Shown: positions 4,432 to 64,000 of the stretch, one piece after another
Layout of the letters: every line of letters begins with the position of its first letter
Numbering within the stretch: the stretch's first letter is position 1
From: Planctomycetota bacterium
Lineage (GTDB): Bacteria; Planctomycetota; UBA8108; SXIK01
Direction: 5' to 3'
DNA length: 64,000 bases
NCBI GenBank assembly: GCA_965223845.1
Contig: CBDCXR010000004.1
Location: 448,001-512,000, forward strand
Program-made: the position numbers and the translations under genes
Notes under the pieces: generated by a model
Databases searched by the model: none
What the model saw: only the letters and a program-made list of their open reading frames with translations
What the model was told of the DNA's origin: nothing

Positions 4432-6327
4432 TTGACTGAGCGCTCGCTCGCGATTGCGGTTTTCCTCGGCGGAACGCTCACTCTGGGATGCGCCGCCGTC
4501 CCCCGGGCAAACGCCGCCGAGCGACCGTTCGTCATTCGGGTCGTCGACGAGGCGACCGGCCGCGGCGTTCCGCTCGTCGAGCTCTCGACGACGAACGGGA
4601 TTGCGCTCTGGACCGATTCGAACGGCATCGCTGTCTTCGACGAGCCGGGGCTCGTCGGACAGAGTGTCTTCTTCTCGGTACGCTCGCACGGTTACGAGTA
4701 CCCGGAAGACGGTTTCGGCTACCGCGGCAAGGCGCTCCTCGTGAAGCGGGGGGCGAGCGCGACGCTCCGTGTCCGACGCACGCAGATCGCAGAGCGCCTC
4801 TACCGCGTGACGGGCGCGGGCATCTACCGCGACAGCGTGCTCGCTGGGATCTCCGTTCCGATCCGGCGATCGCTCGTCAACGCGCGCGTGGTGGGGCAGG
4901 ACAGCGTCCTCACGGCGATCTACCGCGGAAGAATCCATTGGTTTTGGGGCGACACGAGCCGCGTGCGCTATCCGCTCGGAAACTTCTTTACGACGGGCGC
5001 GACATCTCACTTTCCCGCCCGCGGCGGTCTCGATCCCGCGGTCGGAGTGGATCTCGAGTACTTCGAGAACGACGAAGGCTTCGTCCGCCCGATGGCGAAG
5101 TTCCCCGGTCCGGGGCCGACCTGGTTGAGTGGCCTCGTCGTTCTGGGCGAAGCGCCGAACGAGCGGATGTTCGCTCATTACGAGCGCATTGAATCGGGGG
5201 TGATCCGCGCGTACGAGCGCGGCCTCGTCGAGTTTAGTGGGGACGAAAACGAGTTTTCGATCGTCTCGAAGTTCGAGCACGCGCAGCCGTTTCCGGGCGG
5301 AGCGCACACGCTCGTGTTGGCGCGTGAAGGAGTGCCGTACGTCTATTTCTGCGATCCACTTCCGCTCGTGCGCGTGCGCGCGGACGCGCAGAGTCTCGCG
5401 GAGCAATCGGCGTACGAATCGTATTCACCGCTCGTCGAGGGGGAGCGCGACGCGAAGACGGCGCCGCTCGACCGGAGCGAAGGCGGCGAGCTCCGCTTCG
5501 CGTGGAAGCGCGGCACCGCGCCGCTACTTCCCGCGACGCTTCACGATCGCATCCGGAAAGGGGACCTCCGGGAGGACGAGAGTCCGTACGCGCTGCGCGA
5601 CGTCGAGGCGGGAAAGACCGTAGCCGCGCACCGCGGGACGGTCGAGTGGAACGCGCACCGGCGCCGCTGGGTCTGCGTGTTCGTCGAAGTCGGGGGAACG
5701 TCGTTTCTCGGCGAGGTGTGGTACGCCGAAGCCGACCGCATCCTCGGTCCCTGGGTGTGGGCGCGGAAGATCGCGACTCACGACCGTTACAGCTTTTACA
5801 ACCCGCGGCATCATCCGTTTTTCGACGCCGAGGGCGGCCGGATCATCTACTTCGAGGGAACGTACGCGACTACGTTCTCCGGCAACTCGACGAAGACCCC
5901 CCGCTACGACTACAACCAGATCCTCTACCGGCTCGACCTGGATGATCCGCGACTCAATCTCCCCGTCGCGGTCTACGAAACGACGAGCTCAGACGGCCAA
6001 CTCGCGCTCGGGGATCACTCATCTGAAGCGGCCACAGCCGACGAAGAACGAGCGATCGCGTTTTGGGCGTTCGAACGACCGGGAGCCGACACCGTCCCGA
6101 TCCGTCTTTCGCTAGCGCGCGGTGGTGCGATGGTCTACGGCTACTCGCCCGGCGCGGAGGAGCGACCCTCGGCGACGGTGCCGCTCTGGGAGTTTACGCG
6201 AGCGAGCGACGACGGCCGTCGCTACGCGACCGACGATCGCCGACCCGACGGCGCAACGTGGAAGCGGGGGGGCGAGCCGGTCGGTTACGTGTGGCCGCAT
6301 GCCGGTCGACGCACTGCTCCGCGGTGA
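4432..6327 (+). CDS. Exported hypothetical protein (probable beta-propeller)
   Basis: 631-aa ORF with N-terminal signal peptide/possible lipobox (TLGC), WFWGDT and YNPRHHPFF motifs, beta-rich composition; start uncertain. Confidence 0.6.
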   Translation: MTERSLAIAVFLGGTLTLGCAAVPRANAAERPFVIRVVDEATGRGVPLVELSTTNGIALWTDSNGIAVFDEPGLVGQSVFFSVRSHGYEYPEDGFGYRGKALLVKRGASATLRVRRTQIAERLYRVTGAGIYRDSVLAGISVPIRRSLVNARVVGQDSVLTAIYRGRIHWFWGDTSRVRYPLGNFFTTGATSHFPARGGLDPAVGVDLEYFENDEGFVRPMAKFPGPGPTWLSGLVVLGEAPNERMFAHYERIESGVIRAYERGLVEFSGDENEFSIVSKFEHAQPFPGGAHTLVLAREGVPYVYFCDPLPLVRVRADAQSLAEQSAYESYSPLVEGERDAKTAPLDRSEGGELRFAWKRGTAPLLPATLHDRIRKGDLREDESPYALRDVEAGKTVAAHRGTVEWNAHRRRWVCVFVEVGGTSFLGEVWYAEADRILGPWVWARKIATHDRYSFYNPRHHPFFDAEGGRIIYFEGTYATTFSGNSTKTPRYDYNQILYRLDLDDPRLNLPVAVYETTSSDGQLALGDHSSEAATADEERAIAFWAFERPGADTVPIRLSLARGGAMVYGYSPGAEERPSATVPLWEFTRASDDGRRYATDDRRPDGATWKRGGEPVGYVWPHAGRRTAPR

Positions 6328-6364
6328 CCGCTCCCGAATCGCGACGTCGAGGAACCTGGATTCG

Positions 6365-7984
6365 TCATTCGTCGAGAAGTCGCACCGCCGCGTCGATGAC
6401 TTCGCGGCTGTGCCGATCGAGCGTGTCGGCGTCGAGGTTCAGGAGAGCGTTCAGAGCCTTCTCGTTCCGCTGCCACGCGAGGGCCTTGATCACGACGTGC
6501 TTGATCTCCGCGGGCGCGACGCCCAGGAGCTCTACGAGGTAGTCCGTCGACTCAGGGGTCATGACCTGCGAGAGGGTGTGGATGTTGAGCCGGGCACGAT
6601 GCCACTCACCGGAGCTGCGGTGGCGCTCGAGCTCCGTTCGGTAGGTGTCCAAGTAGCCGGCGCGGATGGCGTCGTCGTCGCCCTGGTAGGAGGCGAGAAG
6701 AATGCCCGCGAGATGTCGATCGAACTCGCCGGCGAGCGCGCCGAGTACCTTCGGGAGATCCTTCTCGCTTTTCAGATAGAGACCGAACCGAAGGAGCCCT
6801 TCGTCGTGATCGAACGCGTCACTGAGGAAGCGCCCGACGAGGAGCTCTTCCTCCGACCAGAGCCGCGAACGCATGAATCGCTGCCCCGCTTCGCTATCGA
6901 GAAGCGCCGCGAGCTCGACGACCTTCGCGTACCCCTCCTCTCCCTGACTGACGAGATCCATCGCGAGGATCCAGAGACCTTCGAGGTCGCCCCTCGCGAA
7001 GAGCCGCGCGGCGAGCGAGTCCGCTTCGGCGACCGTCGTCCGTGGGCGGTCGGACGGTGAAGCCCGCTTCGGCCTAGAATTCATCGCGGCCGCATCGCTC
7101 GCGGCCCGAGCGGCCGCGCTCTTCGCTTTCGCGGAGTCGTTCCTCAGCTCGCGTTCGAGCGCTCTTGCCTTTGCGAGGCTCGCCCTGAGCGCGTCGTTCT
7201 CTCCCCGCAGGGTTTCGATGCGGGAGTCGAGCTCCGACTGGTCCGCGATGGCCGCGTCCGCGCGCTTCGTTTCCGAGTCGAGGGCGAGATAGAGATAACT
7301 CGCGCCGAGAGTGAGGACGGCGACGGCGGCCGAAAGAGCCGCGGTGATCTTTCCGGACATCAAACTGACTCCGAGGACGGTGAGGTTGCTGTTCGAAAGT
7401 GACGATCCGGCCGCGACCGCGGAGCCGGCGCTCACGCCGGCGGCGTTCGCCCGAGCCCCGACGCTCCACGACGCTGCAAGTGCTGCGACCCACACACCGC
7501 GCGCGCCGAAGTCGTGGTCGAGTGCGCAGCGAAGCCGGGCGAGACCGCGCTTTTGACGCGTACGAACCGTTTCCACCGGGACGCCCTCGCGCCGGGCGAT
7601 CTCGCGCGGCGGAAGGTTTTCGTAGAATCGATGGAGGATCACTTCGCGGTACGGCGACTCGAGCGCAAAGACGGCGTCGGCGATCCGCCGAGCGAGGGCT
7701 TCCTTCTCGGCGATCTCCGTGACGGACGGGAGTCCTTCGCGGCGCGCGGCCAGCCACTCGCGTTCGCGGCGGCGCGTTTCCCGGCGGTGGCGTGAGATCG
7801 CGGCGTTGCGCAGCACTCGCGCGAGCCAGGCGCGACTCGTGTCGGGATGCTCGGGCGGCCGGCGAACCGCGCTCAGGTACGCCTCTTGAACGAGGTCGTC
7901 CGCGTCAGCGTCGCGCCCGACGAGCGCGGATGCGAGCGAACGGAGAAAGCTGCCGTGAGAGAGAAGAGCTTCGGCGTCGTTCAT
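6365..7984 (-). CDS. ECF sigma-70 factor with C-terminal membrane/coiled-coil/HEAT-like extension
   Basis: Region 2 (ADDLVQEAY, AWLARVLRN), region 4 (REIARREGVPVETVRTRQKRGLARLR), then Ala-rich linker, TM helix, coiled coil and HEAT-like end; start set at ATG 7984 (MNDAEALL). Confidence 0.85.
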   Translation of the reverse strand: MNDAEALLSHGSFLRSLASALVGRDADADDLVQEAYLSAVRRPPEHPDTSRAWLARVLRNAAISRHRRETRRREREWLAARREGLPSVTEIAEKEALARRIADAVFALESPYREVILHRFYENLPPREIARREGVPVETVRTRQKRGLARLRCALDHDFGARGVWVAALAASWSVGARANAAGVSAGSAVAAGSSLSNSNLTVLGVSLMSGKITAALSAAVAVLTLGASYLYLALDSETKRADAAIADQSELDSRIETLRGENDALRASLAKARALERELRNDSAKAKSAAARAASDAAAMNSRPKRASPSDRPRTTVAEADSLAARLFARGDLEGLWILAMDLVSQGEEGYAKVVELAALLDSEAGQRFMRSRLWSEEELLVGRFLSDAFDHDEGLLRFGLYLKSEKDLPKVLGALAGEFDRHLAGILLASYQGDDDAIRAGYLDTYRTELERHRSSGEWHRARLNIHTLSQVMTPESTDYLVELLGVAPAEIKHVVIKALAWQRNEKALNALLNLDADTLDRHSREVIDAAVRLLDE

Positions 7985-55046: not shown

Positions 55047-55357
55047 GATCGACTCGATGGGGTCCCAGTCCGCGGAGGTCGAGGGTCGGTGGGGGGACGG
55101 CTCTCGAGAGGCACGTCGGCGGATGGCGATCGAGCCTGTGTTATAGCGCGGCGGCGCCCCGAGTCCACCGTCCGCGGTGTCTTGGCCGCTCGATCTCCGC
55201 CGCGGCCGCTCCGGCCTTCCCCCGTCCGGGGATTGTTCGAGTCGCCGGCTCGCGCCAGCGACGGGCGCGCATGCTAAAATCGACCGCTCACCCGGAATCG
55301 TACCCTCGTCGACCGTCGCGAGCGCGTACCGCCGACTTCCTCGGAGGACCCGACGAC

Positions 55358-58300
55358 ATGACTGCAGCGACCGTTCCGCCCGCGCGCGGCGATTCGAGGG
55401 TGATTCGATACGCCCACGAATGGCTCCGGCCGGCCGCCGTGTGCGTTGCTGCGGTGTGCGGGGCGATTCTCGCGGGATGCGATTCTTCGTCTCGTTCCTC
55501 CGGCGTGCGCGCTGCCCTTCGGATCAACGAGGTGATGGCGCGGAACAGCTCCACGGTTCTCAGGGACGACTCGGGGCGGCCGATCGTCCAGGACTGGGTC
55601 GAGCTCTACAACGACGGCCCGGAACCGCTGACGCTCCAGGGCTACAGTCTCACGGACAACCCGAGGCGCCGCGGGCGCTTCCGCTTTCCGCCGGGCGCGG
55701 AGATCGCCCCGGGCGAGTTCGTCGTCGTCTTCGTCTTCAATCGCGACCGCTGCGAGGAGCGGTGCGACGACCGCCTCGCGACTTGCCTCACCCCTCGACC
55801 CGGCGAAGACGAGCCCTCGCAGGACGACATCGCCGAGTGCGAGCGCGCCTACGATACTTGTCTCGAGTCGTGCGAGCCGGTCGGGTTCATTGCCGATTTC
55901 GGGCTCGGTGGATCGGAACGCATGTATCTCTACGACGGCGACGCGCTCGTCGATCAGGTCGGCGTAACGGAGATCCCGCCCGACGTCTCCGTCGGCCGAT
56001 TCCCGGATGGATCCGGTGGCTTCGAAGTGATCTACGCGGGGCCGACTCCGGGAACGGGCAACCGTCCCGCCGGAGTGCCTCCGCCCGCGATCTCCGCTTC
56101 GCTCAGTCCCGAGGCGTTGATTCCGGACTGCGGCGAAGACGTGACTCTCAGCTTCAGCGTCAGCGTCGAGACGGCGGACGTCGAGGCGGTCGATGTCGTC
56201 GTCGAGCTCGCCGACGTCGCGCAGTGCGGCGACCTCGTTTCGGACGAGGATTTCGCGCTCGCCGTCGAGCCGGAGTTCGTCGAAGCGGTGACCGGAGAGC
56301 CGTTCGAAGTGCCCGATCTCAACAACGAGCTGCGTACGGTCGAGCCGACCGTGTTCACCTATTCGGCGACCCTCCCGGGATCGCCGTGCGGGACGACGCG
56401 GCGCGCGCGGATTCGGGCCCGCGCGGACGAGGTCGAGACCGTCGAGCGTCTCGGGTGCTTCACTTGGGCGGAAGACCAGAGCCTCGCGCCGGTTCGCATC
56501 AACGAGTACGTCCCGCGGAACACGGAGCTCGTATTCACGTACCAGCGCGCGCGGTTCATTCGTGCGGGTCAGATGGATCCCGATCCGCCCACCCCGGCGT
56601 CCGATTGGTTTGAGCTCGTCAACTACGGCGACGCCCCGATCGATATTTCGCGCTTCGGGATCGCGAGCCTCAACGATTGGGAAGAGTTCTTGAGCGGCCA
56701 GGTCGACGTCCTCGACACGTGGACGCTCGTCGACCCCGATCCTCTCTCCGAGGAGACGCCCGAGCAGGTCATCATCGACCCGGGTTGTTTTCTCGTCGTT
56801 CTCGCCGACAACGACGGCGGGAGCGACGCGGATCAGTTCCGCCAAACCTATCGCCTCTTCGATCCTGAGATGTTCCGCGGCGACCTCGGTTGTCAGCTCA
56901 CCGATTCGAGCGGCGACCCGTATTTTTTCTCCACCGACTTCGGCCTCGACGCGACGACGCAGAATCGCATCGACGGTTTTGTCTTCGTCGACGAAAACGG
57001 TCGCCGACTCGACGCGGTCGAGCTCGCGTTCGAGAGCATTCCGCCGGATCTGGTCGACGAAACCGGCGCCGTGCCGACCGTGCGCGCGAACGTCGCCCTC
57101 GGGCGACTGCCCCTTGCCGACGAAACCTTCAGTGAAGACCTCGTGCCGGGCGAGTTTCTCTGCGTACCGACCCCGGGCGCGGACAATACACTCCTCTGCG
57201 ACGTCCCGCCGCGCTTCGATCCCGATGTGCTCGTTCTTCCCCGGAACCCTCGGGCCGGCGAGCCCGTGGCCGTCTCCGGGAAGGTCAACTTCGACCTCGA
57301 TACGACGAGCGTCGACCAGCGCTTCGAGGTCCACTATCGCGTCGAGCGCGCCGGCGGCGGTGCGTCGGACGAGGTGCTCACTCTCGCCGACGACGCCCTC
57401 GTGCTCGAAGAATCCGCGGACCAGACGGACGCCGCCGCCGCGAGTCGACTCTACGACTTCGTCGCCACGTTCCCGGGATTCGAGAGCGGAGACTTCGTGA
57501 CGTTCTTCTGCTTCGCGCAGGACCTGTCCGACGGTGGCGACAACTCGGAGGTGTTCTTCACTGAAGACGACACCCCGCGCAGCTCGATGCGTTTCGTCGT
57601 CGGATTCGAGCCGCCGGCGGACCACCCGCGGATCACCGAAGTGCTGCCGCTCAATCAGACGATCGTCTTGCCGCCGTTCGTCGACGTGCCGATGCCACCG
57701 ACTCCCGACTACGCCGAGATTCACAACCCGAGCGGGGAAGCTTGGGATCTCAGCGGATACTACCTCGCGCAGGTCGACCCGACGAGCGAGCGGCGCAGCG
57801 TGCTCTCTCGTCCGCGCGAGTGGCGGTTTCCCGACGGGACGCTGCTCCCGGCCGGCGAGTCGCTCCCGCTCTACTTCGGTGGGGTCGGGGAGGAGTTCCT
57901 CGAGGTCGATTTCAACCTGGGGTGTCCCGAGTCGCTGTTCCTCATCGCTCCGGACGATGCCGCGCGCGGCGCGCACTCGGTGATCGACTCGGTCGCGTGG
58001 GGACTGAATCTATGCAACGATCTCCCCGATCGTTCCTGGGCGCGCCCCTGCGAGAGTTTCGATACGTTCGCAGTCGTCGACCCGTCTCCCGCCGAGCTCA
58101 ACTCCGCTGCCTGGCTGCCGCCGCTCTTTCACTCCGCGTATCATACGGACGTCCAGAACGTCGCGGCACTTTGCGTTTCTCCGACGTCGTTTGTGACGCT
58201 GAACGCGCACGTCTTCGTCGACGCGGCGCTCGCTGCCTCGCTCGAGTCTCAGCGCTCCGAAGACGTGATCGACTCGGCGGTGTTCGTCGTCGACTACCGG

Positions 58301-59221
58301 GACGGAAGTGATCCGCGCTTGATCCCCGCTTCGCGGCTCGATGTGACGTGCCCCGCCGCGGGCGACTGCGTCGAGGCCCCCGAGGGCTACCGGAGCGTCC
58401 GTCTGTCGACGCTCCTCGACGATCTCTCGCAGCGATCGATCGGCGCGTCCATCGAGTACGAGATCCTCGCGACGACCGCGTGCGGGCGGATGGTCGCGGG
58501 CGGTCCCTTCAGTGTCGGAACGAGCGCCGGCGACAAGCCGGCGGTCGTGATCAACGAGATCAACCTCGCCGCGCCGCTCCCGGGCGCGCCGGACGAGCCG
58601 CGGGCCTGGGTCGAGCTTCTCAACCTCGAGGGCGGCGAAGTCGACGCTTCCGGGATGTTCCTTACCGATGACCTCCAGGTATCGCAGAAGGTCGTCGTAC
58701 CGGACGGAACCACGCTCTCGGCGGGCGGATTCGCAGTCGTTCCGATCGACGGCGCGAGCGGAATGGATCTCACGGGTCGGGACGGTGAGCTCGTCCTCAT
58801 CGACTCCGTTGCGAGAGGAAGCTGCGGGGTGGACTCCTTCGCGTTCGATTATCGCGAGCGAGAGCCATCGACCTCGCTCGGCCTGCTTCCCGACGGAATG
58901 GGAGACCCGGTTGAGCTCGAGCGCCCGAGCCCCGGTGCGCCGAACGACAGCTCGGCCCCCGTATTCCTCCGCGGCGATGCGGACGAGGACGGGAGGCTCA
59001 CCGTGTCCGACATGATTCGGATCCTCTCCATTCTCTTCGATGACGATGCGGAACGACCGGCGTGCGACGACGCGCTCGACGCCGATGACGACGGTCGCAT
59101 CGCGGTGAACGACTCGCTCTTCATCGGCAACTTTCTCTTCCAGGACGGTGACCCGATCCCGCCGCCGTATCCCGAGCCCGGACCCGATCCGACGCCGGAC
59201 GACCTCGAGTGTCGTCCTTAG
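55358..59221 (+). CDS. Large lipoprotein with four lamin-tail-like domains and C-terminal dockerin-like domain
   Basis: Lipobox LAGC; INEVMARN/DWVELYN, INEYVPRN/DWFELVN, ITEVLPLN/DYAEIHN, INEIN/WVELLN, each closed by a TPG/SP..N motif; FLRGDADED...DADDDGRIAVND. Confidence 0.8.
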   Translation: MTAATVPPARGDSRVIRYAHEWLRPAAVCVAAVCGAILAGCDSSSRSSGVRAALRINEVMARNSSTVLRDDSGRPIVQDWVELYNDGPEPLTLQGYSLTDNPRRRGRFRFPPGAEIAPGEFVVVFVFNRDRCEERCDDRLATCLTPRPGEDEPSQDDIAECERAYDTCLESCEPVGFIADFGLGGSERMYLYDGDALVDQVGVTEIPPDVSVGRFPDGSGGFEVIYAGPTPGTGNRPAGVPPPAISASLSPEALIPDCGEDVTLSFSVSVETADVEAVDVVVELADVAQCGDLVSDEDFALAVEPEFVEAVTGEPFEVPDLNNELRTVEPTVFTYSATLPGSPCGTTRRARIRARADEVETVERLGCFTWAEDQSLAPVRINEYVPRNTELVFTYQRARFIRAGQMDPDPPTPASDWFELVNYGDAPIDISRFGIASLNDWEEFLSGQVDVLDTWTLVDPDPLSEETPEQVIIDPGCFLVVLADNDGGSDADQFRQTYRLFDPEMFRGDLGCQLTDSSGDPYFFSTDFGLDATTQNRIDGFVFVDENGRRLDAVELAFESIPPDLVDETGAVPTVRANVALGRLPLADETFSEDLVPGEFLCVPTPGADNTLLCDVPPRFDPDVLVLPRNPRAGEPVAVSGKVNFDLDTTSVDQRFEVHYRVERAGGGASDEVLTLADDALVLEESADQTDAAAASRLYDFVATFPGFESGDFVTFFCFAQDLSDGGDNSEVFFTEDDTPRSSMRFVVGFEPPADHPRITEVLPLNQTIVLPPFVDVPMPPTPDYAEIHNPSGEAWDLSGYYLAQVDPTSERRSVLSRPREWRFPDGTLLPAGESLPLYFGGVGEEFLEVDFNLGCPESLFLIAPDDAARGAHSVIDSVAWGLNLCNDLPDRSWARPCESFDTFAVVDPSPAELNSAAWLPPLFHSAYHTDVQNVAALCVSPTSFVTLNAHVFVDAALAASLESQRSEDVIDSAVFVVDYRDGSDPRLIPASRLDVTCPAAGDCVEAPEGYRSVRLSTLLDDLSQRSIGASIEYEILATTACGRMVAGGPFSVGTSAGDKPAVVINEINLAAPLPGAPDEPRAWVELLNLEGGEVDASGMFLTDDLQVSQKVVVPDGTTLSAGGFAVVPIDGASGMDLTGRDGELVLIDSVARGSCGVDSFAFDYREREPSTSLGLLPDGMGDPVELERPSPGAPNDSSAPVFLRGDADEDGRLTVSDMIRILSILFDDDAERPACDDALDADDDGRIAVNDSLFIGNFLFQDGDPIPPPYPEPGPDPTPDDLECRP

Positions 59222-59528
59222 CGCGATTTGGGGGATGTTTTGCGGTTGGTCGTTGCTCCGTCCGAAGACCTACGTCTATAACTTTCGCTACTGGAACCTC
59301 CGCCGCGGGCACGCCCCCAGCGGGACCCTCCGGTAATCTCCTCCCCCGCCAATCAAATCAGCGCCCCTGCCGATATCGACGGCACGGTACACCGTGGCCG
59401 ACGACGCTGTCGCCGATCGGTATTTCCTCCGAATCGACGATGCGATCGGTCCCTCGCGTGCAGTTACGGTGCCGCTCGCTGGGTGTCCCGCACCTAGCCT
59501 ATCTGGTGATCGAGGTCGACCGTTGAAC

Positions 59529-61085
59529 GTGAATCCACTCCACTCACTCCGTTCCGTGACCAAGCTCGTGATCGTCGCGCTCGTTCTCACGAGCGTGACC
59601 GCTCACGCACAGACCCGGTTTCCGTCTCCGACGCAGCGCATCCGCGATCTCGAGAAGCGACTCACCGAGCGGATCGACGAGCTCGAAAAAGAGGTCGAAC
59701 GCCTCGAGGACGAGAAGCTCGACGCGAAGGGGAAAAAGGGCGGCGACCTATTTTCGGACGGGATCGTCACGATCGGCGACGTCGAATTGAAGCTCGGCGG
59801 CAAGATCGAGCTCCTCTACATCGACACGGACAGCGGCAGCGATGCGGTCTTCGGACGCGCAGATGAGCCGGATCCGCACTTCGAGCTCCAGCGACTCCGG
59901 CTCGCGCCTCGGCTGCGATTCAACCGCCACATCGAAGCGGCGGGGCAGATCGACCTCAAGCCGATCGAGGGACGTCTCACGCTCAAGGAAATGACGGTGC
60001 GCCATCGGTACGAACCGAACTGGTGGCTGCGCTCCACCGTGAGGATCGGGCTCGACGACCGGTTCATTCGTCCGAATCGGAGAACGAAGACGTATCCGCT
60101 CGTCGGAAACGCGTTCTGGCGCGACGAGTCGCTCGGAATCCAGTGGGCGCTGCGGATCGGCGACCCCGATGGACCACCGAAGGAGAAGAAGAAGAAAAAG
60201 AAGAAGGACGACGAAGAAACCGTCGACGTGAGCCACGAAGGCGGCACCGAAGCCGAAGACCGACTCGCGCGCATCGACGCGCGTGCGGAGTACTTCGAGG
60301 ATTCGGAGCCGAGTGTGTTCGATTTCTCGCACAACCCGGGTGCGCTCACATTCTTCGTCTCGCTCAATCAGACTTCGGTTCTCAACGAGAACGAAGTCGG
60401 CTTCGACGGCGCGGCGTTCAACGAAATCGTTCAGGACGATCGCAACCTCGACGGCGATCTCGCGATCAGCGAAGTCGGGTTCGGTCTCCGCTACGGGCGC
60501 GACTTCGATTGGCTCGGGGACCTGTCGATCCTCGGCTTCTTCTACGTCGACAGCCTCAACAACGATTCGCGCGACTTCCTCCAGCAGGATCTCACCGTCC
60601 GCGACAACGGGGGCGTCGCGCTCGCCGGCTACGGCGACTCGCGTTCACGCGACAGCAACAAGTACGGAGTCGGTCTAAACTACTTCCTTCCCGCCGAGAC
60701 GCTCATCGGACGCTGGGTGGACACGCGCGGTCGCGACGGACTCCGCATCCAAGGTCAGTGGATCCGCGCGGAAGACGGCGATCTCAAGCGAAAGGGTTGG
60801 TACGTCATGGGATCGTACCGTTACTCCTTCCGCGAGCGGCTGATCGCGGGGCGCTACCTCCGAAGCGTCGAGCCGCTCGTGCGCTACGGCGAGCTCGATA
60901 CGAACCTCGGGCCGGTCCCATCGCTTCCCGGGACCTGGGATCGCGAGCGTCTCGTGTTCGGCCTCATCACCGAAGTGACCGACGAGGTCTTGTTCAAGAT
61001 CGAGTACGCGATCAACGAGGAGGACACGGGCGTTCGGAGCGTCGACAACGACGAGCTGATGGTCGAGCTCCTCCTCCTCTTTTGA
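59529..61085 (+). CDS. Outer-membrane beta-barrel (porin-like) protein
   Basis: Signal peptide (AHA-Q), short N-terminal coiled coil, alternating beta strands, GWYV..SY, EPLVRY, FKIEY, terminal Phe; start uncertain. Confidence 0.7.
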   Translation: MNPLHSLRSVTKLVIVALVLTSVTAHAQTRFPSPTQRIRDLEKRLTERIDELEKEVERLEDEKLDAKGKKGGDLFSDGIVTIGDVELKLGGKIELLYIDTDSGSDAVFGRADEPDPHFELQRLRLAPRLRFNRHIEAAGQIDLKPIEGRLTLKEMTVRHRYEPNWWLRSTVRIGLDDRFIRPNRRTKTYPLVGNAFWRDESLGIQWALRIGDPDGPPKEKKKKKKKDDEETVDVSHEGGTEAEDRLARIDARAEYFEDSEPSVFDFSHNPGALTFFVSLNQTSVLNENEVGFDGAAFNEIVQDDRNLDGDLAISEVGFGLRYGRDFDWLGDLSILGFFYVDSLNNDSRDFLQQDLTVRDNGGVALAGYGDSRSRDSNKYGVGLNYFLPAETLIGRWVDTRGRDGLRIQGQWIRAEDGDLKRKGWYVMGSYRYSFRERLIAGRYLRSVEPLVRYGELDTNLGPVPSLPGTWDRERLVFGLITEVTDEVLFKIEYAINEEDTGVRSVDNDELMVELLLLF

Positions 61086-61445: not shown

Positions 61446-62309
61446 GTGCCCGCCTTTCGAACCGGTCGCCGCGAGCACAAGTATGAGCTCTCCCCGGCGG
61501 TCGCCGCGGCTCTTCGCGCCGACATCGCTACGCGGCTCCCTCTCTACTCGTACATTCCGGGCCGCACGGAGACCTTCGTGTCGACCGTCTACTTCGATAC
61601 GGTCGATCGCGTTCTCTTTCGCCGCGCGGAGCGTTCGTTCGACGACAATCTAAAGATCCGGGTGAAGGAGTACTTCTACCCGGTCGGGAATTCGGCGAAC
61701 GGGCGGAGCGCCGGGGATGAGCGGATCGTTCGGCGCGAGAACGAGACCATCGAGGGCGGCTTGCTCGTCTCGCCGACCTGCTACGTGGAGCTCAAAGAGC
61801 GAACCGGCGGTGTCGTCACGAAACGTCGGCTGGCACTCCCTAAGGCGCAGGTGCCGCGCTTGTTCGCCGGCGAGGACGTCGCCCCGTTCATCGAGGGTGT
61901 GAACGGCGTCGGCACCCACGGCGCAGGTGTCGCGTCGACCTACTCGCGGCTCTGTCGCGAGCTGAGTCGAGCGCGCGTCGAGTGTTCGTCGATCGTCGTC
62001 TACCACCGCGTCGTCTACCAAGAGTCCGAGTCCGATCTCCGGATCACGTTCGACGACGCGATTCGAGTGTACGCACCGCGTTCGGATCTCTACGATCGGC
62101 ATTCCGCCCTGACTCCCGCCGTGCTCGGGGAGCCGCTGCGACGGCTCGACAAGACGATTCTCGAGATCAAGTGTCCGAGAGAGTATCCGGCCTGGCTCAA
62201 GAGCACCTTGCGGCGCGTTTCTACCAAGCGGCTCTCGAAGTTCACGTCGAGTGTTCGACTCGTCCTCAAATCCGGGAGTCGGCGCCCGGGCGAGGCTGGG
62301 GACGCGTGA
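61446..62309 (+). CDS. VTC-domain (polyphosphate polymerase-like, CYTH/TTM fold) protein
   Basis: RREHKY, STVYFDT, KIRVKEY, ELKER..G...KRR, RITFD, ILEIK, SKF. Confidence 0.85.
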   Translation: MPAFRTGRREHKYELSPAVAAALRADIATRLPLYSYIPGRTETFVSTVYFDTVDRVLFRRAERSFDDNLKIRVKEYFYPVGNSANGRSAGDERIVRRENETIEGGLLVSPTCYVELKERTGGVVTKRRLALPKAQVPRLFAGEDVAPFIEGVNGVGTHGAGVASTYSRLCRELSRARVECSSIVVYHRVVYQESESDLRITFDDAIRVYAPRSDLYDRHSALTPAVLGEPLRRLDKTILEIKCPREYPAWLKSTLRRVSTKRLSKFTSSVRLVLKSGSRRPGEAGDA

Positions 62310-62611: not shown

Positions 62612-64000
62612 ATGGCCCAGCCCGACGCGGCACCGCCGCCAGTGTTCATCGACTTTGAAGGGATCGATGGGAGCGGCAAGACGACGCTCTCCAATCGACT
62701 TGCCGCGTTTCTCGAGGAGAAGGGAATCCCGGTCCATCACGCGCGGAGCGGCGGTGTCTTTCGCTCAGAGATCTCGAAGGAAATCCGCACCCTGACGCGG
62801 GCGCCGCGCTTCCTGCGAATGAGCGATATCACGGAGCTGATGCTCTACGTCGCTCGCGACACGCAGATGATCGACGAGTTCATCCGGCCGAAGCTTCTGC
62901 CGGGTCACGTCGTGTTCAGCGATCGTTACCTCTACTCGACCATCGTGCACAGCCACCACGCGCGGGGAGTTCCGAGGGAGCAGGTCGACGCGGTGCTCGA
63001 CGTCGCAGCGCGCGGCCTCTGGCCGGATATCGTGATCTACAGCGACGTCGACCCGCTGACGTCGCGGGTGAGAAAGAAGATTCAAAAGGTTCGCGACCGA
63101 CGGCCCCTCGGGGACTTCGGGCGGAAGGGGCTGATGGGGATCGGGTTCCGCGAAGAGATGCGGAACGGCTTTCTCAAGCTCGCCGAAGAGGATCCGGACC
63201 GCTGGATCGTCATCGACAATGCGAACAGCACGATCGAGGAGTCGCTCCAGCGGATCTTCGAACGTGTCGCGACGGTGCTCGAGAGGAAGGGCTACGCCCA
63301 GCTCGAAGATCCGCACTGGGCTGATCTCTCGTCGCCGCGCGAGCGTCCTCAGACTCGTCTCCGGCGGCGCGTGGAGGAACTCCTCGCGATCGAGGACGAC
63401 GCGGCGCGGAGGAGCGCGGCCTACGATCTCTTCTACGAGGAGCTGCGCGCGCTCGCCGACGAGAATCCCGGCTATGTCGGGCTCTATCTGAGCGGGGTGG
63501 CGACGCCCGAGGCACACGAGCTGCGCGAGCGGATTCTCGATCGCGAACCCGCGCTCGTCGCATTCGGTCTGCAGGGCGTGCGGACACCGGAGTCGATGGA
63601 GCTCCGAGAGAAGCTGAAGGATTCGCAGCCGCACTACGTCGCGCGCAGTCTCTCCGGATTCGCCGAAACTCCGGAGGTTGTCGCGATGCGGGAGGCGCTC
63701 GCCTCCGTCGCTCCCGAATACGTGGCGCTCACCGTGCGCGGGGACGACACGCCTCACGCCTGGGAAATCCGCCGGCAGATCGGAAAGAACGCCCCGCGGG
63801 AAGTCTTGATCAGCCTCCGCGGCCTCGATGTCGACCTCGCCTGGGAGTACCGAGACAAGTGGTCGAAGGAGCGGCTGCTGCCGGCGCTTCTCGAGAGTCT
63901 AGGCGGTATCGACACGGAGCGTGCGTGGCGCTGGCGGGATGAACTCTCGGCGATGTACCTACCGTGGGTCCTGATGAGCCTCCGCGGCGTGATGTCGGAC
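62612..64000 (+). CDS. Thymidylate-kinase-like P-loop kinase fused to ~27-aa tandem repeats; 3'-truncated by window edge
   Basis: Manual translation: FIDFEGIDGSGKTT, ELMLYVARDTQ, FSDRYLYS, WPDIVIY.DVD, RWIVIDN, then repeats; frame open to 64000; not in the ORF track. Confidence 0.85.
   Translation, partial: MAQPDAAPPPVFIDFEGIDGSGKTTLSNRLAAFLEEKGIPVHHARSGGVFRSEISKEIRTLTRAPRFLRMSDITELMLYVARDTQMIDEFIRPKLLPGHVVFSDRYLYSTIVHSHHARGVPREQVDAVLDVAARGLWPDIVIYSDVDPLTSRVRKKIQKVRDRRPLGDFGRKGLMGIGFREEMRNGFLKLAEEDPDRWIVIDNANSTIEESLQRIFERVATVLERKGYAQLEDPHWADLSSPRERPQTRLRRRVEELLAIEDDAARRSAAYDLFYEELRALADENPGYVGLYLSGVATPEAHELRERILDREPALVAFGLQGVRTPESMELREKLKDSQPHYVARSLSGFAETPEVVAMREALASVAPEYVALTVRGDDTPHAWEIRRQIGKNAPREVLISLRGLDVDLAWEYRDKWSKERLLPALLESLGGIDTERAWRWRDELSAMYLPWVLMSLRGVMSD
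63467..64000 (+). repeat. Protein-level ~27-aa tandem repeats (six complete plus a partial seventh)
   Basis: PGYVGLYLSGVATPEAHELRERILDRE / PALVAFGLQGVRTPESMELREKLKDSQ / PHYVARSLSGFAETPEVVAMREALASVA / PEYVALTVRGDDTPHAWEIRRQIGKNA / PREVLISLRGLDVDLAWEYRDKWSKERL / LPALLESLGGIDTERAWRWRDELSAMY / LPWVLMSLRGV. Confidence 0.8.

Follow-up and report, generated by a model that had tools for sequence, protein, structure and literature searches.

Organisation of the TmkL locus

The DNA analysed here is a stretch of 64,000 nucleotides (hereafter the window) from a Planctomycetota bacterium (assembly GCA_965223845.1, contig CBDCXR010000004.1, positions 448,001 to 512,000; G000:C4:448001-512000 in our genome numbering). 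Its downstream end carries the gene of a protein encoded from position 62612, to which we gave the working name TmkL. This protein combines a kinase domain of the thymidylate kinase (Tmk) fold with a long domain of helical repeats, and its gene follows one encoding a Vtc4-like VTC domain. The features of these two genes are listed below (aa, amino acids; ORF, open reading frame; pLDDT, predicted local distance difference test; A1, an alignment of 35 TmkL sequences).

61446..62309, plus strand: Vtc4-like VTC (triphosphate-tunnel) domain gene, 287 aa (PF09359, E 3e-22), 303 bases upstream of TmkL
62612..64000, plus strand: TmkL gene, with 463 of 590 codons in the window; the ORF ends 384 bases past it
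62642..63289, plus strand: P-loop kinase domain of the thymidylate kinase fold, residues 11-226 (PF02223 and structural comparison)
62654..62686, plus strand: P-loop FEGIDGSGKTT, residues 15-25 (F15-T24 invariant in 35 of 35 family members)
62738..62755, plus strand: HARSGG, residues 43-48, in place of canonical TREPGG (R45 and G48 kept in 28 of 28 sequences)
62846..62866, plus strand: base-pocket helix Y79-V-A-R82-D83-T-Q85 (column counts and alignment with Thermus thermophilus Tmk)
62921..62956, plus strand: DRY, residues 104-106, then LYSTIVHSH, residues 107-115, replacing canonical x-D-S-x3-Y-Q-G (D104 and R105 kept in 28 of 28)
63053..63163, plus strand: extended basic LID, residues 148-184, with the family-specific insert GDFGRKGLMGIG (column counts)
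within 63290..63463, plus strand: variable linker, residues ~227-248 (gappy, poorly conserved columns of A1; lowest pLDDT in block 241-250)
within 63290..63463, plus strand: N-terminal capping helices, residues 249-282 (modelled helices H249-258 and H263-282)
63464..64000, plus strand: repeats 1-6 and the first half of repeat 7 (autocorrelation, unit division and AlphaFold2 models)

The TmkL frame begins with the ATG at 62612 and is free of stop codons up to the window edge, which leaves 463 aa inside. On the genomic locus that reaches past the window (L003), the complete gene occupies positions 5613-7385, its end being equivalent to window coordinate 64384, and encodes 590 aa. Repeats 7-10 and an acidic tail fall past the window end. 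The initial annotation had placed the gene at 62612-64000: the start holds, and the N-terminus agrees with those of the homologs in A1, while the proposed end is the window edge only. As for its remark that the ORF list had overlooked the gene, the lack of a stop codon within the window is the most probable cause. The motifs that had been read from the sequence are all in place (EGIDGSGKTT at 16-25, HARSGG at 43-48, DRY at 104-106 and GDFGRKGLMG at 167-176). A minus-strand ORF of 330 aa (62765-63757) overlaps the gene, and similar antisense ORFs cluster across the related loci. These were taken as shadows of a conserved plus-strand gene in GC-rich DNA and were not retained.

The AlphaFold2 model of the whole protein, obtained from the 35-sequence alignment, has a mean pLDDT of 91.0 and a predicted template modelling score (pTM) of 0.87. 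In this model, about 22 short helices come after a kinase core of five strands.

The kinase domain has the fold of thymidylate kinase

The Pfam family Thymidylate_kin (PF02223) matches residues 15-215 of TmkL with an E-value of 3e-24 and 86 bits for a cut-off of 27, and the NCBI equivalog model of the dTMP kinases (TIGR00041) gives 92.9 bits for a cut-off of 83.25. In an exhaustive structural comparison, the model is closest to the Tmk of T. thermophilus (5x7j_A; Z 23.6, root-mean-square deviation 1.7, 182 aligned residues, 37% identity). The Tmk of Staphylococcus aureus follows with Z 21.9, and PPK2 structures with Z 12.4 and 11.6. All the matches listed by Foldseek for the kinase domain are Tmk, and the Pfam scan of TmkL at E-values up to 1 detected no PPK2 family (PF03976). 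The fold of TmkL is that of Tmk, and the kinase derives from Tmk and not from PPK2. The initial annotation had called for a comparison with both families; the offshoot from Tmk stands, from the Z-score of 23.6 and from a clade located among the Tmk (see below), and descent from PPK2 falls.

Conservation of the active site

To count residues column by column, the kinase domains of 28 TmkL were aligned to those of 61 ordinary bacterial Tmk, which come from the same genome scan and include the canonical copy of the genome itself. In the P-loop, E16, D19, G20, G22 and K23 are identical in all sequences of both sets. The residues R45, G48, E75, D104-R105, R118, R154, R171 and R184 are the same as the canonical residue in 28 of the 28 TmkL.

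The substitutions are concentrated elsewhere. The Pro of the canonical 'EP' (in REPGG) is present in 60 of 61 Tmk and in none of the 28 TmkL, the preceding Glu being still a Glu in 16 and an Asp in 6 of the TmkL. In the base-pocket helix, the Arg located four residues past the stacking aromatic residue is found in 60 of 61 Tmk; it is replaced by Asp (18 of 28) or Glu (10 of 28) in TmkL, where a new Arg occurs one position earlier in all 28 sequences. The stacking aromatic itself, Y79, is kept in 24. The Y, Q and G that follow the DRX motif are each conserved in 61 of 61 Tmk, while TmkL has neither the Y nor the Q in any sequence (0 of 28 for each); the substitutes vary (L21/H6/Q1 at the first position and A13/S10/G4/C1 at the second, subscript-like numbers being sequence counts), and the third position is variable. 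The LID is longer in TmkL than in Tmk (median of 37 residues vs 31) and more basic (median of 10 Lys and Arg vs 5). Its R-x-E/D motif becomes R-K-G, with R154, R171 and R184 retained, and R171, G173, L174 and G176 are invariant in A1. The residue-wise alignment of TmkL to T. thermophilus Tmk displays the same active-site substitutions.

From the crystal structures of Tmk, we take the lost residues (Y-Q-G, the base-pocket Arg and EP) to be contacts of the thymine ring and of the deoxyribose, and the retained arginines to be phosphate holders, R45 and R105 presumably holding the acceptor phosphate. Judged from the alignment, the thymidine-recognition residues of TmkL are lost while the catalytic residues are retained, which points to an intact phosphoryl-transfer machinery with a rebuilt acceptor site. 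The earlier suggestion of a non-dTMP kinase gains support from this loss, common to the 28 sequences.

TmkL is an additional paralog with a patchy distribution

The same genome contains a canonical tmk (C4:727099-727686, 212 aa, 144 bits against PF02223) with the motifs VREPGGT and AYQG, directly followed by the gene of the DNA polymerase III delta-prime subunit (holB; DNA_pol3_delta2, E 4.5e-44). The five other TmkL genomes that were searched all have a short-frame Tmk (139-158 bits) alongside the long-frame TmkL (75-100 bits). TmkL is an additional paralog and not the housekeeping enzyme; that it might be the sole tmk of the genome, which the initial annotation had named as a test of its reading, is not what was found. 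In a Corallococcus genome, two long-frame matches of the Tmk family (572 and 588 aa) were observed.

A search of 5.8 billion proteins recovered 334 TmkL relatives at E-values up to 0.001 among 8000 candidates scored. Nearly all of the best 120 of these 334 are 549-681 aa long, with about 95-100% query coverage and 39-74% identity. Among these 120, the only source names are 'dTMP kinase' and 'thymidylate kinase' (Planctomycetota metagenome-assembled genomes (MAGs) and Haliangium ochraceum), and most are nameless. With one genome per species, 20 full-length TmkL loci were obtained, of which 4 belong to Planctomycetota and 16 to Myxococcota or to MAGs that bear a proteobacterial label but cluster with the Myxococcota. 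Archangium violaceum, A. gephyra, Citreicoccus inhibens and a Corallococcus are among the carriers.

The phylogenetic tree was obtained by maximum likelihood with a quick search, supported by the Shimodaira-Hasegawa-like approximate likelihood-ratio test (SH-aLRT) only, and with the PPK2 of the genome itself as outgroup. All 28 TmkL sequences form a single clade amid the bacterial Tmk (SH-aLRT 100) on a stem of 1.15 substitutions per site. The PPK2 lies on a branch of 10 substitutions per site, and its meeting with the genome's canonical Tmk in the tree is to be read with the usual caution for long branches; the TmkL clade is unaffected. Within this clade, the sequences from Planctomycetota and Myxococcota are intermixed, which suggests inter-phylum transfer or old paralogy.

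In a sample of 201 genomes of the phylum, the repeat domain of TmkL was detected at E-values up to 1e-10 in nine, including the genome of the window. The distribution is patchy: all three other genomes of the same order are positive, and none of the six same-class genomes from other orders. Two TmkL lineages occur in Myxococcaceae and Archangiaceae, with the gene orders VTC-X-TmkL (L013, L015, L025) and X-VTC-TmkL (L017, L018, L019, L021), X being a secreted protein described below. Two copies may be decaying genes or assembly errors: in L020 (7001-9739) two overlapping ORFs take the place of a single TmkL frame, and the VTC protein loses similarity at its C-terminus, and the TmkL match at G154:C176:14263-15132 has one in-frame TGA.

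TmkL is associated with VTC and DUF4956 genes

Gene neighbourhoods were compared by clustering the ORFs of the locus itself and of the 20 related loci (21 in total, from two phyla). A VTC gene occurs within about 3 kb of TmkL in 17 of the 21. Eight further Planctomycetota loci have the VTC gene directly upstream in six cases; of the two others, one is cut by a contig end, and in the second a VTC gene lies farther upstream on the contig, at about 5 kb. At the level of whole genomes, VTC is present in 52 of the 201 sampled and in all nine with TmkL, and TmkL therefore appears to be accessory to a subset of VTC systems. The linkage to VTC on which the initial annotation had relied is thus a property of the homologs as well.

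A gene of about 230 aa resembling DUF4956 is directly downstream of TmkL in 12 of the 21 loci and in 3 of the 8 further ones. Two examples were scanned with the DUF4956 model: the match reaches an E-value of 1.6e-11 in A. gephyra and of 1.7e-6, below the cut-off, in a planctomycete. Of 14 control genomes, three have VTC, and these three and no others have DUF4956. Two other families recur: the secreted protein X (420-490 aa, with a signal peptide and a GQFK-x-P motif) in 10 of the 21 loci, and the lipoprotein-like Z (about 250 aa) in 9. The common order in myxobacteria is X - VTC - TmkL - DUF4956 - Z. X and Z have no match in Pfam or NCBIfam, and a tblastn search of the window's genome with the myxobacterial X and Z gave no match at E-values up to 0.01.

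The VTC gene at 61446..62309 is the only one of its genome. An alignment of 13 VTC proteins from TmkL loci contains 23 invariant columns, which include the charged motifs of the triphosphate tunnel (E-x-K, Y-x-D, R-x-x-E-Y, E-x-K, K-x-R, Y-x-R, R-x-T-x-D, E-x-K and S-K-F). The profile of these bacterial proteins aligns over the full length of the catalytic domain of yeast Vtc4 (E 1.3e-18), and more weakly and partially with the non-catalytic Vtc2 and Vtc3 (E 1e-10 to 3e-9). From this conservation the VTC neighbour looks catalytic. According to published abstracts, Vtc4 polymerises polyphosphate from ATP. A complex prediction for TmkL (A1) with VTC (alignment A3) scored 0.00 in two runs without controls, and speaks neither for nor against an interaction.

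The window's genome also has PPK1 (730-aa frame) and PPK2 (299-aa frame), which are adjacent at G000:C4:3743755-3746265. Its DUF4956 candidate (C4:3343074-3343613) is a four-helix membrane protein of 278 aa. It is 32% identical to the DUF4956 protein found beside TmkL in a planctomycete (E 4e-18), and its match to the Pfam model is below the cut-off (E 2.9e-5). A MutS2-like gene, judged by eye, adjoins it.

The repeat domain

The BLOSUM autocorrelation of residues 281-590 has its peak at a lag of 27 (z 9.2 vs 300 shuffles), with harmonics at 55, 82 and 108. Residues 285-557 are divided into ten helix-turn-helix units of 27 or 28 aa, six and a half of them inside the window. The initial annotation had described a 27-residue repeat after about 285 aa with the consensus P-x2-V-x2-S-L-x-G-x2-T-x2-A-W-x2-R-x2-L, and the ten units fit this description. 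Modelled alone from 18 sequences, the C-terminal domain reaches a pLDDT of 92.7, and every unit is a helix-turn-helix.

The best superposition of this domain is with the PC-repeat region of the proteasome subunit Rpn2 (Z 13.8, root-mean-square deviation 4.2, 301 of 329 residues), then PSMD2 (Z 12.7); a Z-score of 13-14 is the level that helical repeats reach by their common arrangement alone, as noted by the comparison tool. Foldseek found nothing in the PDB for this domain at E-values up to 0.001. In residues 230-590, Pfam gave no repeat family at E-values up to 1 and only two weak matches of chance level, and the protein-atlas search returned no usable match and no named look-alike. The AlphaFold2 models are in keeping with the solenoid architecture predicted earlier. 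They look like an alpha/alpha solenoid without close solved relative, possibly closed into a toroid. As proposed, the domain may serve for interactions.

Each repeat has an invariant Arg in A1: all 35 sequences share it in eight repeats, 34 in another and 29 in the tenth. The Ala-Trp that precedes it is near-invariant from repeat 4 onwards. This Arg/Trp ladder could bind a ligand or could form a structural spine. The last residues (575-590; L003 7335-7382) form in the window's subgroup a strongly acidic tail that ends with D-F-T; its charge is -10 in the TmkL of the window. Over the 35 aligned sequences, the median charge of the last 16 or so residues is -8, and the tail is shorter or absent in distant members. 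It could be an internal mimic of a polyanionic substrate.

A HMMER search with residues 240-590 detected 370 representatives at E-values up to 0.001, mostly TmkL of 530-600 aa. The repeat also occurs in stand-alone proteins of about 170-390 aa and in giant proteins of about 920-1880 aa. Among nine non-TmkL repeat proteins that were scanned, five have a transglutaminase core, one has an AAA_5 domain and three have no match. The presence of the repeat in TmkL, in stand-alone and in giant proteins therefore indicates a reusable module without a family model. The repeat-bearing giants with a transglutaminase core (about 950-1520 aa) and the single protein with AAA_5 are P0148, P0178, P0182, P0167, P0195 and P0237.

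Other genes of the locus

Further features were recorded around the VTC-TmkL pair, in the window and on L003.

55271-59221, plus strand: protein of 1316 aa matched three times by the Lamin Tail Domain model (PF00932, E 4.5e-30); the porin-like ORF comes directly after it
59394..61085, plus strand: porin-like outer-membrane protein candidate, ORF of 563 aa, upstream in 4 of 5 loci of the window's subgroup
L003 7443-8387, minus strand: HEAT_2 protein of 314 aa, convergent with TmkL (E 6e-6, just below the cut-off), just past the window
L003 8436-10640, minus strand: protein of 734 aa with the C-lobe of Pkinase only (profile positions 161-259, E 1.7e-9), just past the window

The porin-like ORF has no Pfam match. 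Its look-alikes in a protein language model are porin clusters, 19 of 30 being in a set where 19% of the members carry Porin_O_P; we treat its porin-like nature as a lead only. The protein has a run of lysines in its middle (KEKKKKKKKDDEE) and ends with Leu-Leu-Leu-Phe. Its true start is probably later than the annotated GTG, because this codon lies about 55 residues ahead of a stretch resembling a signal peptide. Homology with the myxobacterial protein X was considered and discarded, none being detected by hhalign (probability 0.2%, E 0.38), and the two are analogous in position only. The 1316-aa protein has two C-terminal dockerin-like repeats (D-x-D-x-D-G-R, seen by eye) and relatives upstream in L007 and L009.

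Downstream of TmkL, the HEAT_2 gene is found in five of the five loci of the window's subgroup and also in L092 and L094; it may be a stand-in for the non-adjacent DUF4956, or unrelated. The 734-aa protein, which bears a long C-terminal D-rich array (WGDDDDDDSSDDDD...), is likewise kept downstream in this subgroup. In the group of A. gephyra, TmkL is followed at a distance of about 3 kb by a Metallophos protein resembling purple acid phosphatases (L017 13130-14605, plus strand, E 2.7e-18). This neighbour, another one related to phosphate, occurs in four myxobacterial loci, and its relative in L026 is upstream on the opposite strand.

Between 59000 and 64000, Rfam gave a single sub-threshold match (Hrs13, 18.6 bits vs 52), taken as chance, and nothing in the 303-base spacer between VTC and TmkL. 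A scan of L003 2000-8600 for promoters and terminators revealed no sigma-70-like site and terminator-like sites that are all weak.

Proposed function of TmkL and rival explanations

The best-supported reading is that TmkL would be an active phosphotransferase derived from Tmk, acting on a second substrate other than thymidylate and dedicated to a bacterial VTC/DUF4956 module. From the residue counts and the gene neighbourhood, we infer the activity of the protein, its substrate, its link to polyphosphate and the role of its repeats as follows. TmkL would be catalytically competent, with an acceptor pocket rebuilt so that thymidylate is no longer recognised. It would be the cytoplasmic component of a module that comprises the Vtc4-like tunnel enzyme and the DUF4956 inner-membrane protein, often with a porin-like protein. 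It may transfer phosphoryl groups between a nucleotide and a (poly)phosphate chain or primer made or handled by the VTC enzyme, as a bacterial parallel of PPK3, an archaeal polyphosphate kinase of the Tmk family (see the last section). Contact with the phosphate chain would fall to the longer, more basic LID, and the repeat domain, with its invariant Arg and near-invariant Trp in each unit, would bind the chain or partner proteins. An inorganic (poly)phosphate chain, or a primer ending in phosphate, is suggested as this second substrate by the sequence and by the archaeal analogy; we hold this part tentatively, at a little short of an even chance.

Several observations weigh against this reading as a whole or in part. 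No VTC gene was found near TmkL in 4 of the 21 loci (L011, L016, L024 and the short L023), and the DUF4956 candidate of the window's genome is unlinked, 2.8 Mb from TmkL. The retained R45 and R105 fit a nucleotide or another phospho-monoester as acceptor as well as a phosphate chain. The curated models of dTMP kinases (PF02223 and TIGR00041) score TmkL above their cut-offs, and its closest solved structures are true dTMP kinases. The one solved PPK3-type protein (the sequence set 2plr/5h70) is a weaker match to TmkL than the bacterial Tmk (39.6 vs 88 bits; Z 20.3 vs 23.6), so any PPK3-like function would be parallel evolution and not shared descent. PPK1 and PPK2 are already in the genome, where a further polyphosphate kinase has no obvious need; the VTC/TmkL module would therefore add to the ordinary polyphosphate metabolism. 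Finally, the median net charge of the repeat domain is only about +4, and in helical repeats a ladder of Arg may have no other than a structural role.

The retention of R45, R105 and, in 24 of 28 sequences, of the aromatic Y79 also suits a nucleotide kinase with an acceptor other than dTMP (a nucleoside mono- or diphosphate, NMP or NDP, or a deoxynucleoside monophosphate, dNMP). Such an enzyme would serve VTC by supplying or recycling nucleotides, for example on the ADP/AMP side, without ever touching the phosphate polymer, and the repeats would only tether it. The evidence of VTC linkage applies equally to it, and the invariant acidic residue in place of the Arg that binds the thymine O4 in Tmk would be suited to a base that carries an exocyclic amino group. 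The variable substitutes of Y-Q-G (L21/H6/Q1 and A13/S10/G4/C1) are however odd for a specific base pocket, an additional basic LID insert is unneeded for an NMP, and the precedent for a loss of the TMP residues in the Tmk family is a polyphosphate kinase, as the PPK3 preprint describes it. We regard this explanation as possible but rather unlikely. TmkL could instead be an NTPase that regulates or scaffolds the VTC/DUF4956 module, with nucleotide binding as a switch and the repeats as a docking platform, comparable in role to the SPX domains of eukaryotic VTC or to rPPK3, the inactive subunit of PPK3. The repeat domain is large and rigidly packed (the whole protein has a pTM of 0.87), which is compatible with this role, as is the occurrence of the repeat alone and in the transglutaminase-core and AAA_5 giants, which is expected of a protein-interaction module; PPK3 itself is described with a regulatory Tmk-like subunit. 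This subunit is however described without the DRX arginine, whereas D104-R105, K23 and the three LID arginines are invariant in TmkL, a pattern of active transferases, and a purely regulatory role seems distinctly improbable.

A second genuine dTMP kinase with an accessory domain would explain the scores of TIGR00041 (92.9 vs 83.25 bits) and PF02223 (E 3e-24), the top structural matches, which are all dTMP kinases, and the names of the relatives, all dTMP or thymidylate kinase where a name exists among the best 120 of 334. Since none of the 28 sequences retains Y-Q-G or the base-binding Arg, a canonical tmk-holB pair is in the genome, a canonical Tmk is in the five other carriers and the conserved operon partners are unrelated to the synthesis of DNA precursors, we consider it very unlikely. 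Lastly, the tunnel-fold (CYTH) enzymes include nucleotide cyclases, and VTC-TmkL-DUF4956 could be imagined as a nucleotide-signalling or anti-phage module composed of a tunnel-fold signal maker, a kinase modifier and a four-helix membrane effector. The patchy distribution (9 of 201 genomes) and the interleaved phyla fit horizontal transfer, and TmkL has a weak match (E 2.5e-11) to the Tmk-like candidate defence protein PDC-M51B. That match is nevertheless weaker than the match to Tmk, and the similarity of the VTC gene to Vtc4, a polyphosphate polymerase, extends over the full length. PADLOC returned nothing for VTC, DUF4956 or the porin-like ORF and only generic Tmk-like models for TmkL. The neighbours are housekeeping genes (ubiquinone genes, porin) and not a defence island, and a defence or signalling role has in our opinion very little probability.

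Returning to the phosphotransferase dedicated to VTC/DUF4956, a more extended picture can be drawn. The porin-like protein, the Vtc4-like enzyme, TmkL and DUF4956, with the lipoprotein in Myxococcota, might form an envelope-spanning prokaryotic counterpart of the VTC machine. Polyphosphate would be made at the inner membrane and passed outwards, or taken up and harvested; TmkL would be an independent PPK3-like polyphosphate:nucleotide phosphotransferase, and the ten-rung Arg/Trp ladder a rail that holds the growing chain. In this full extent the picture is speculative and, as a whole, unlikely.

The fold itself and the turning of a Tmk-family enzyme to polyphosphate are known. The fused architecture, the clade, the 27-aa repeat and the place between VTC and DUF4956 were not found in open-access papers or in bioRxiv, nor was a paper on the function of the widespread bacterial VTC-domain and DUF4956 genes. 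The TmkL family is probably mis-annotated systematically as dTMP kinase, because the dTMP-recognition residues are gone though the sources name it dTMP or thymidylate kinase; the NCBI equivalog model would let the family pass. A kinase subunit with a readable active site offers an experimental handle on the VTC/DUF4956 system, and cultured, non-pathogenic hosts exist (Haliangium ochraceum, Archangium, Corallococcus and Citreicoccus). If the link to polyphosphate is true, polyphosphate metabolism would have drawn on Tmk on at least two occasions (archaeal PPK3 and TmkL), and the module would be a third bacterial route to polyphosphate besides PPK1 and PPK2.

Comparison with known systems

TmkL shares with Tmk the fold, the P-loop, the DRY motif, the LID arginines, the acceptor-phosphate arginines and scores above both curated cut-offs. 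It differs by its length (590 aa vs about 210), by the loss of Y-Q-G, of the base Arg and of the EP Pro, and by a longer basic LID. It forms a separate clade with a long stem, lies beside VTC instead of holB, and coexists with a canonical Tmk in its own genome and in the five others searched.

The PPK3 of Sulfolobus acidocaldarius (Saci_2019/Saci_2020) is described as a polyphosphate kinase of the Tmk family in which the TMP-binding residues, including EP, are not conserved, and in which a positively charged cleft occupies the place of the thymidine pocket (bioRxiv 10.1101/2024.08.28.610084). According to the same preprint, the true dTMP kinase of this archaeon is a third gene, the inactive regulatory subunit rPPK3 lacks the DRX arginine, and the solved protein cited as PPK3-type is STK_15430 (PDB 5h70, with the same sequence set as 2plr). 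As far as this description goes, TmkL resembles PPK3 in being annotated as a thymidylate kinase while coexisting with a true dTMP kinase, in adjoining a polyphosphate gene, in having lost the TMP residues including EP and, possibly, in having gained basic residues near the second-substrate site. Unlike rPPK3, it keeps the DRX arginine. TmkL is however fused to a repeat domain, whereas PPK3 is paired with a Tmk-like regulatory subunit. The gene neighbours are VTC and DUF4956 for TmkL and an exopolyphosphatase for PPK3, and the hosts are Planctomycetota and Myxococcota vs archaea. The main text of the preprint contains neither 'Planctomyc' nor 'Myxococc', and mentions VTC only as a eukaryotic enzyme (bioRxiv 10.1101/2024.08.28.610084).

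PPK2 is also a P-loop kinase; it has a lid, and its core is related to that of Tmk. TmkL is distinguished from it by the absence of PF03976, by the lower Z-scores (12.4/11.6 vs 23.6), by the long branch of the outgroup and by the presence of a separate PPK2 gene.

The eukaryotic VTC complex recalls the locus through the neighbour with a Vtc4-type tunnel domain, whose charged motifs are invariant, and through the coupling to a gene for a multi-pass membrane protein. The bacterial VTC proteins are however free-standing (240-290 aa), their membrane partner is DUF4956 and not of the Vtc1 type, and SPX is absent. To our knowledge, a Tmk-derived kinase with a repeat domain has no counterpart in eukaryotic VTC.

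The repeats of TmkL are comparable to other alpha/alpha repeats (the PC repeats of Rpn2 and PSMD2, the HEAT-like CpcE/F and the designed alphaRep) by their helix-turn-helix units, ten in TmkL. They differ by their period of 27/28 aa and by their own signature S-L-x-G-x-D-x3-A-W-x-L-R. VTC domains also occur together with a kinase and helical repeats, going by the published description, in the locus NELoc-2 of Clostridium perfringens, described with two proteins of the polyphosphate polymerase domain, a CotH kinase and a HEAT-repeat protein (PMC11677781).

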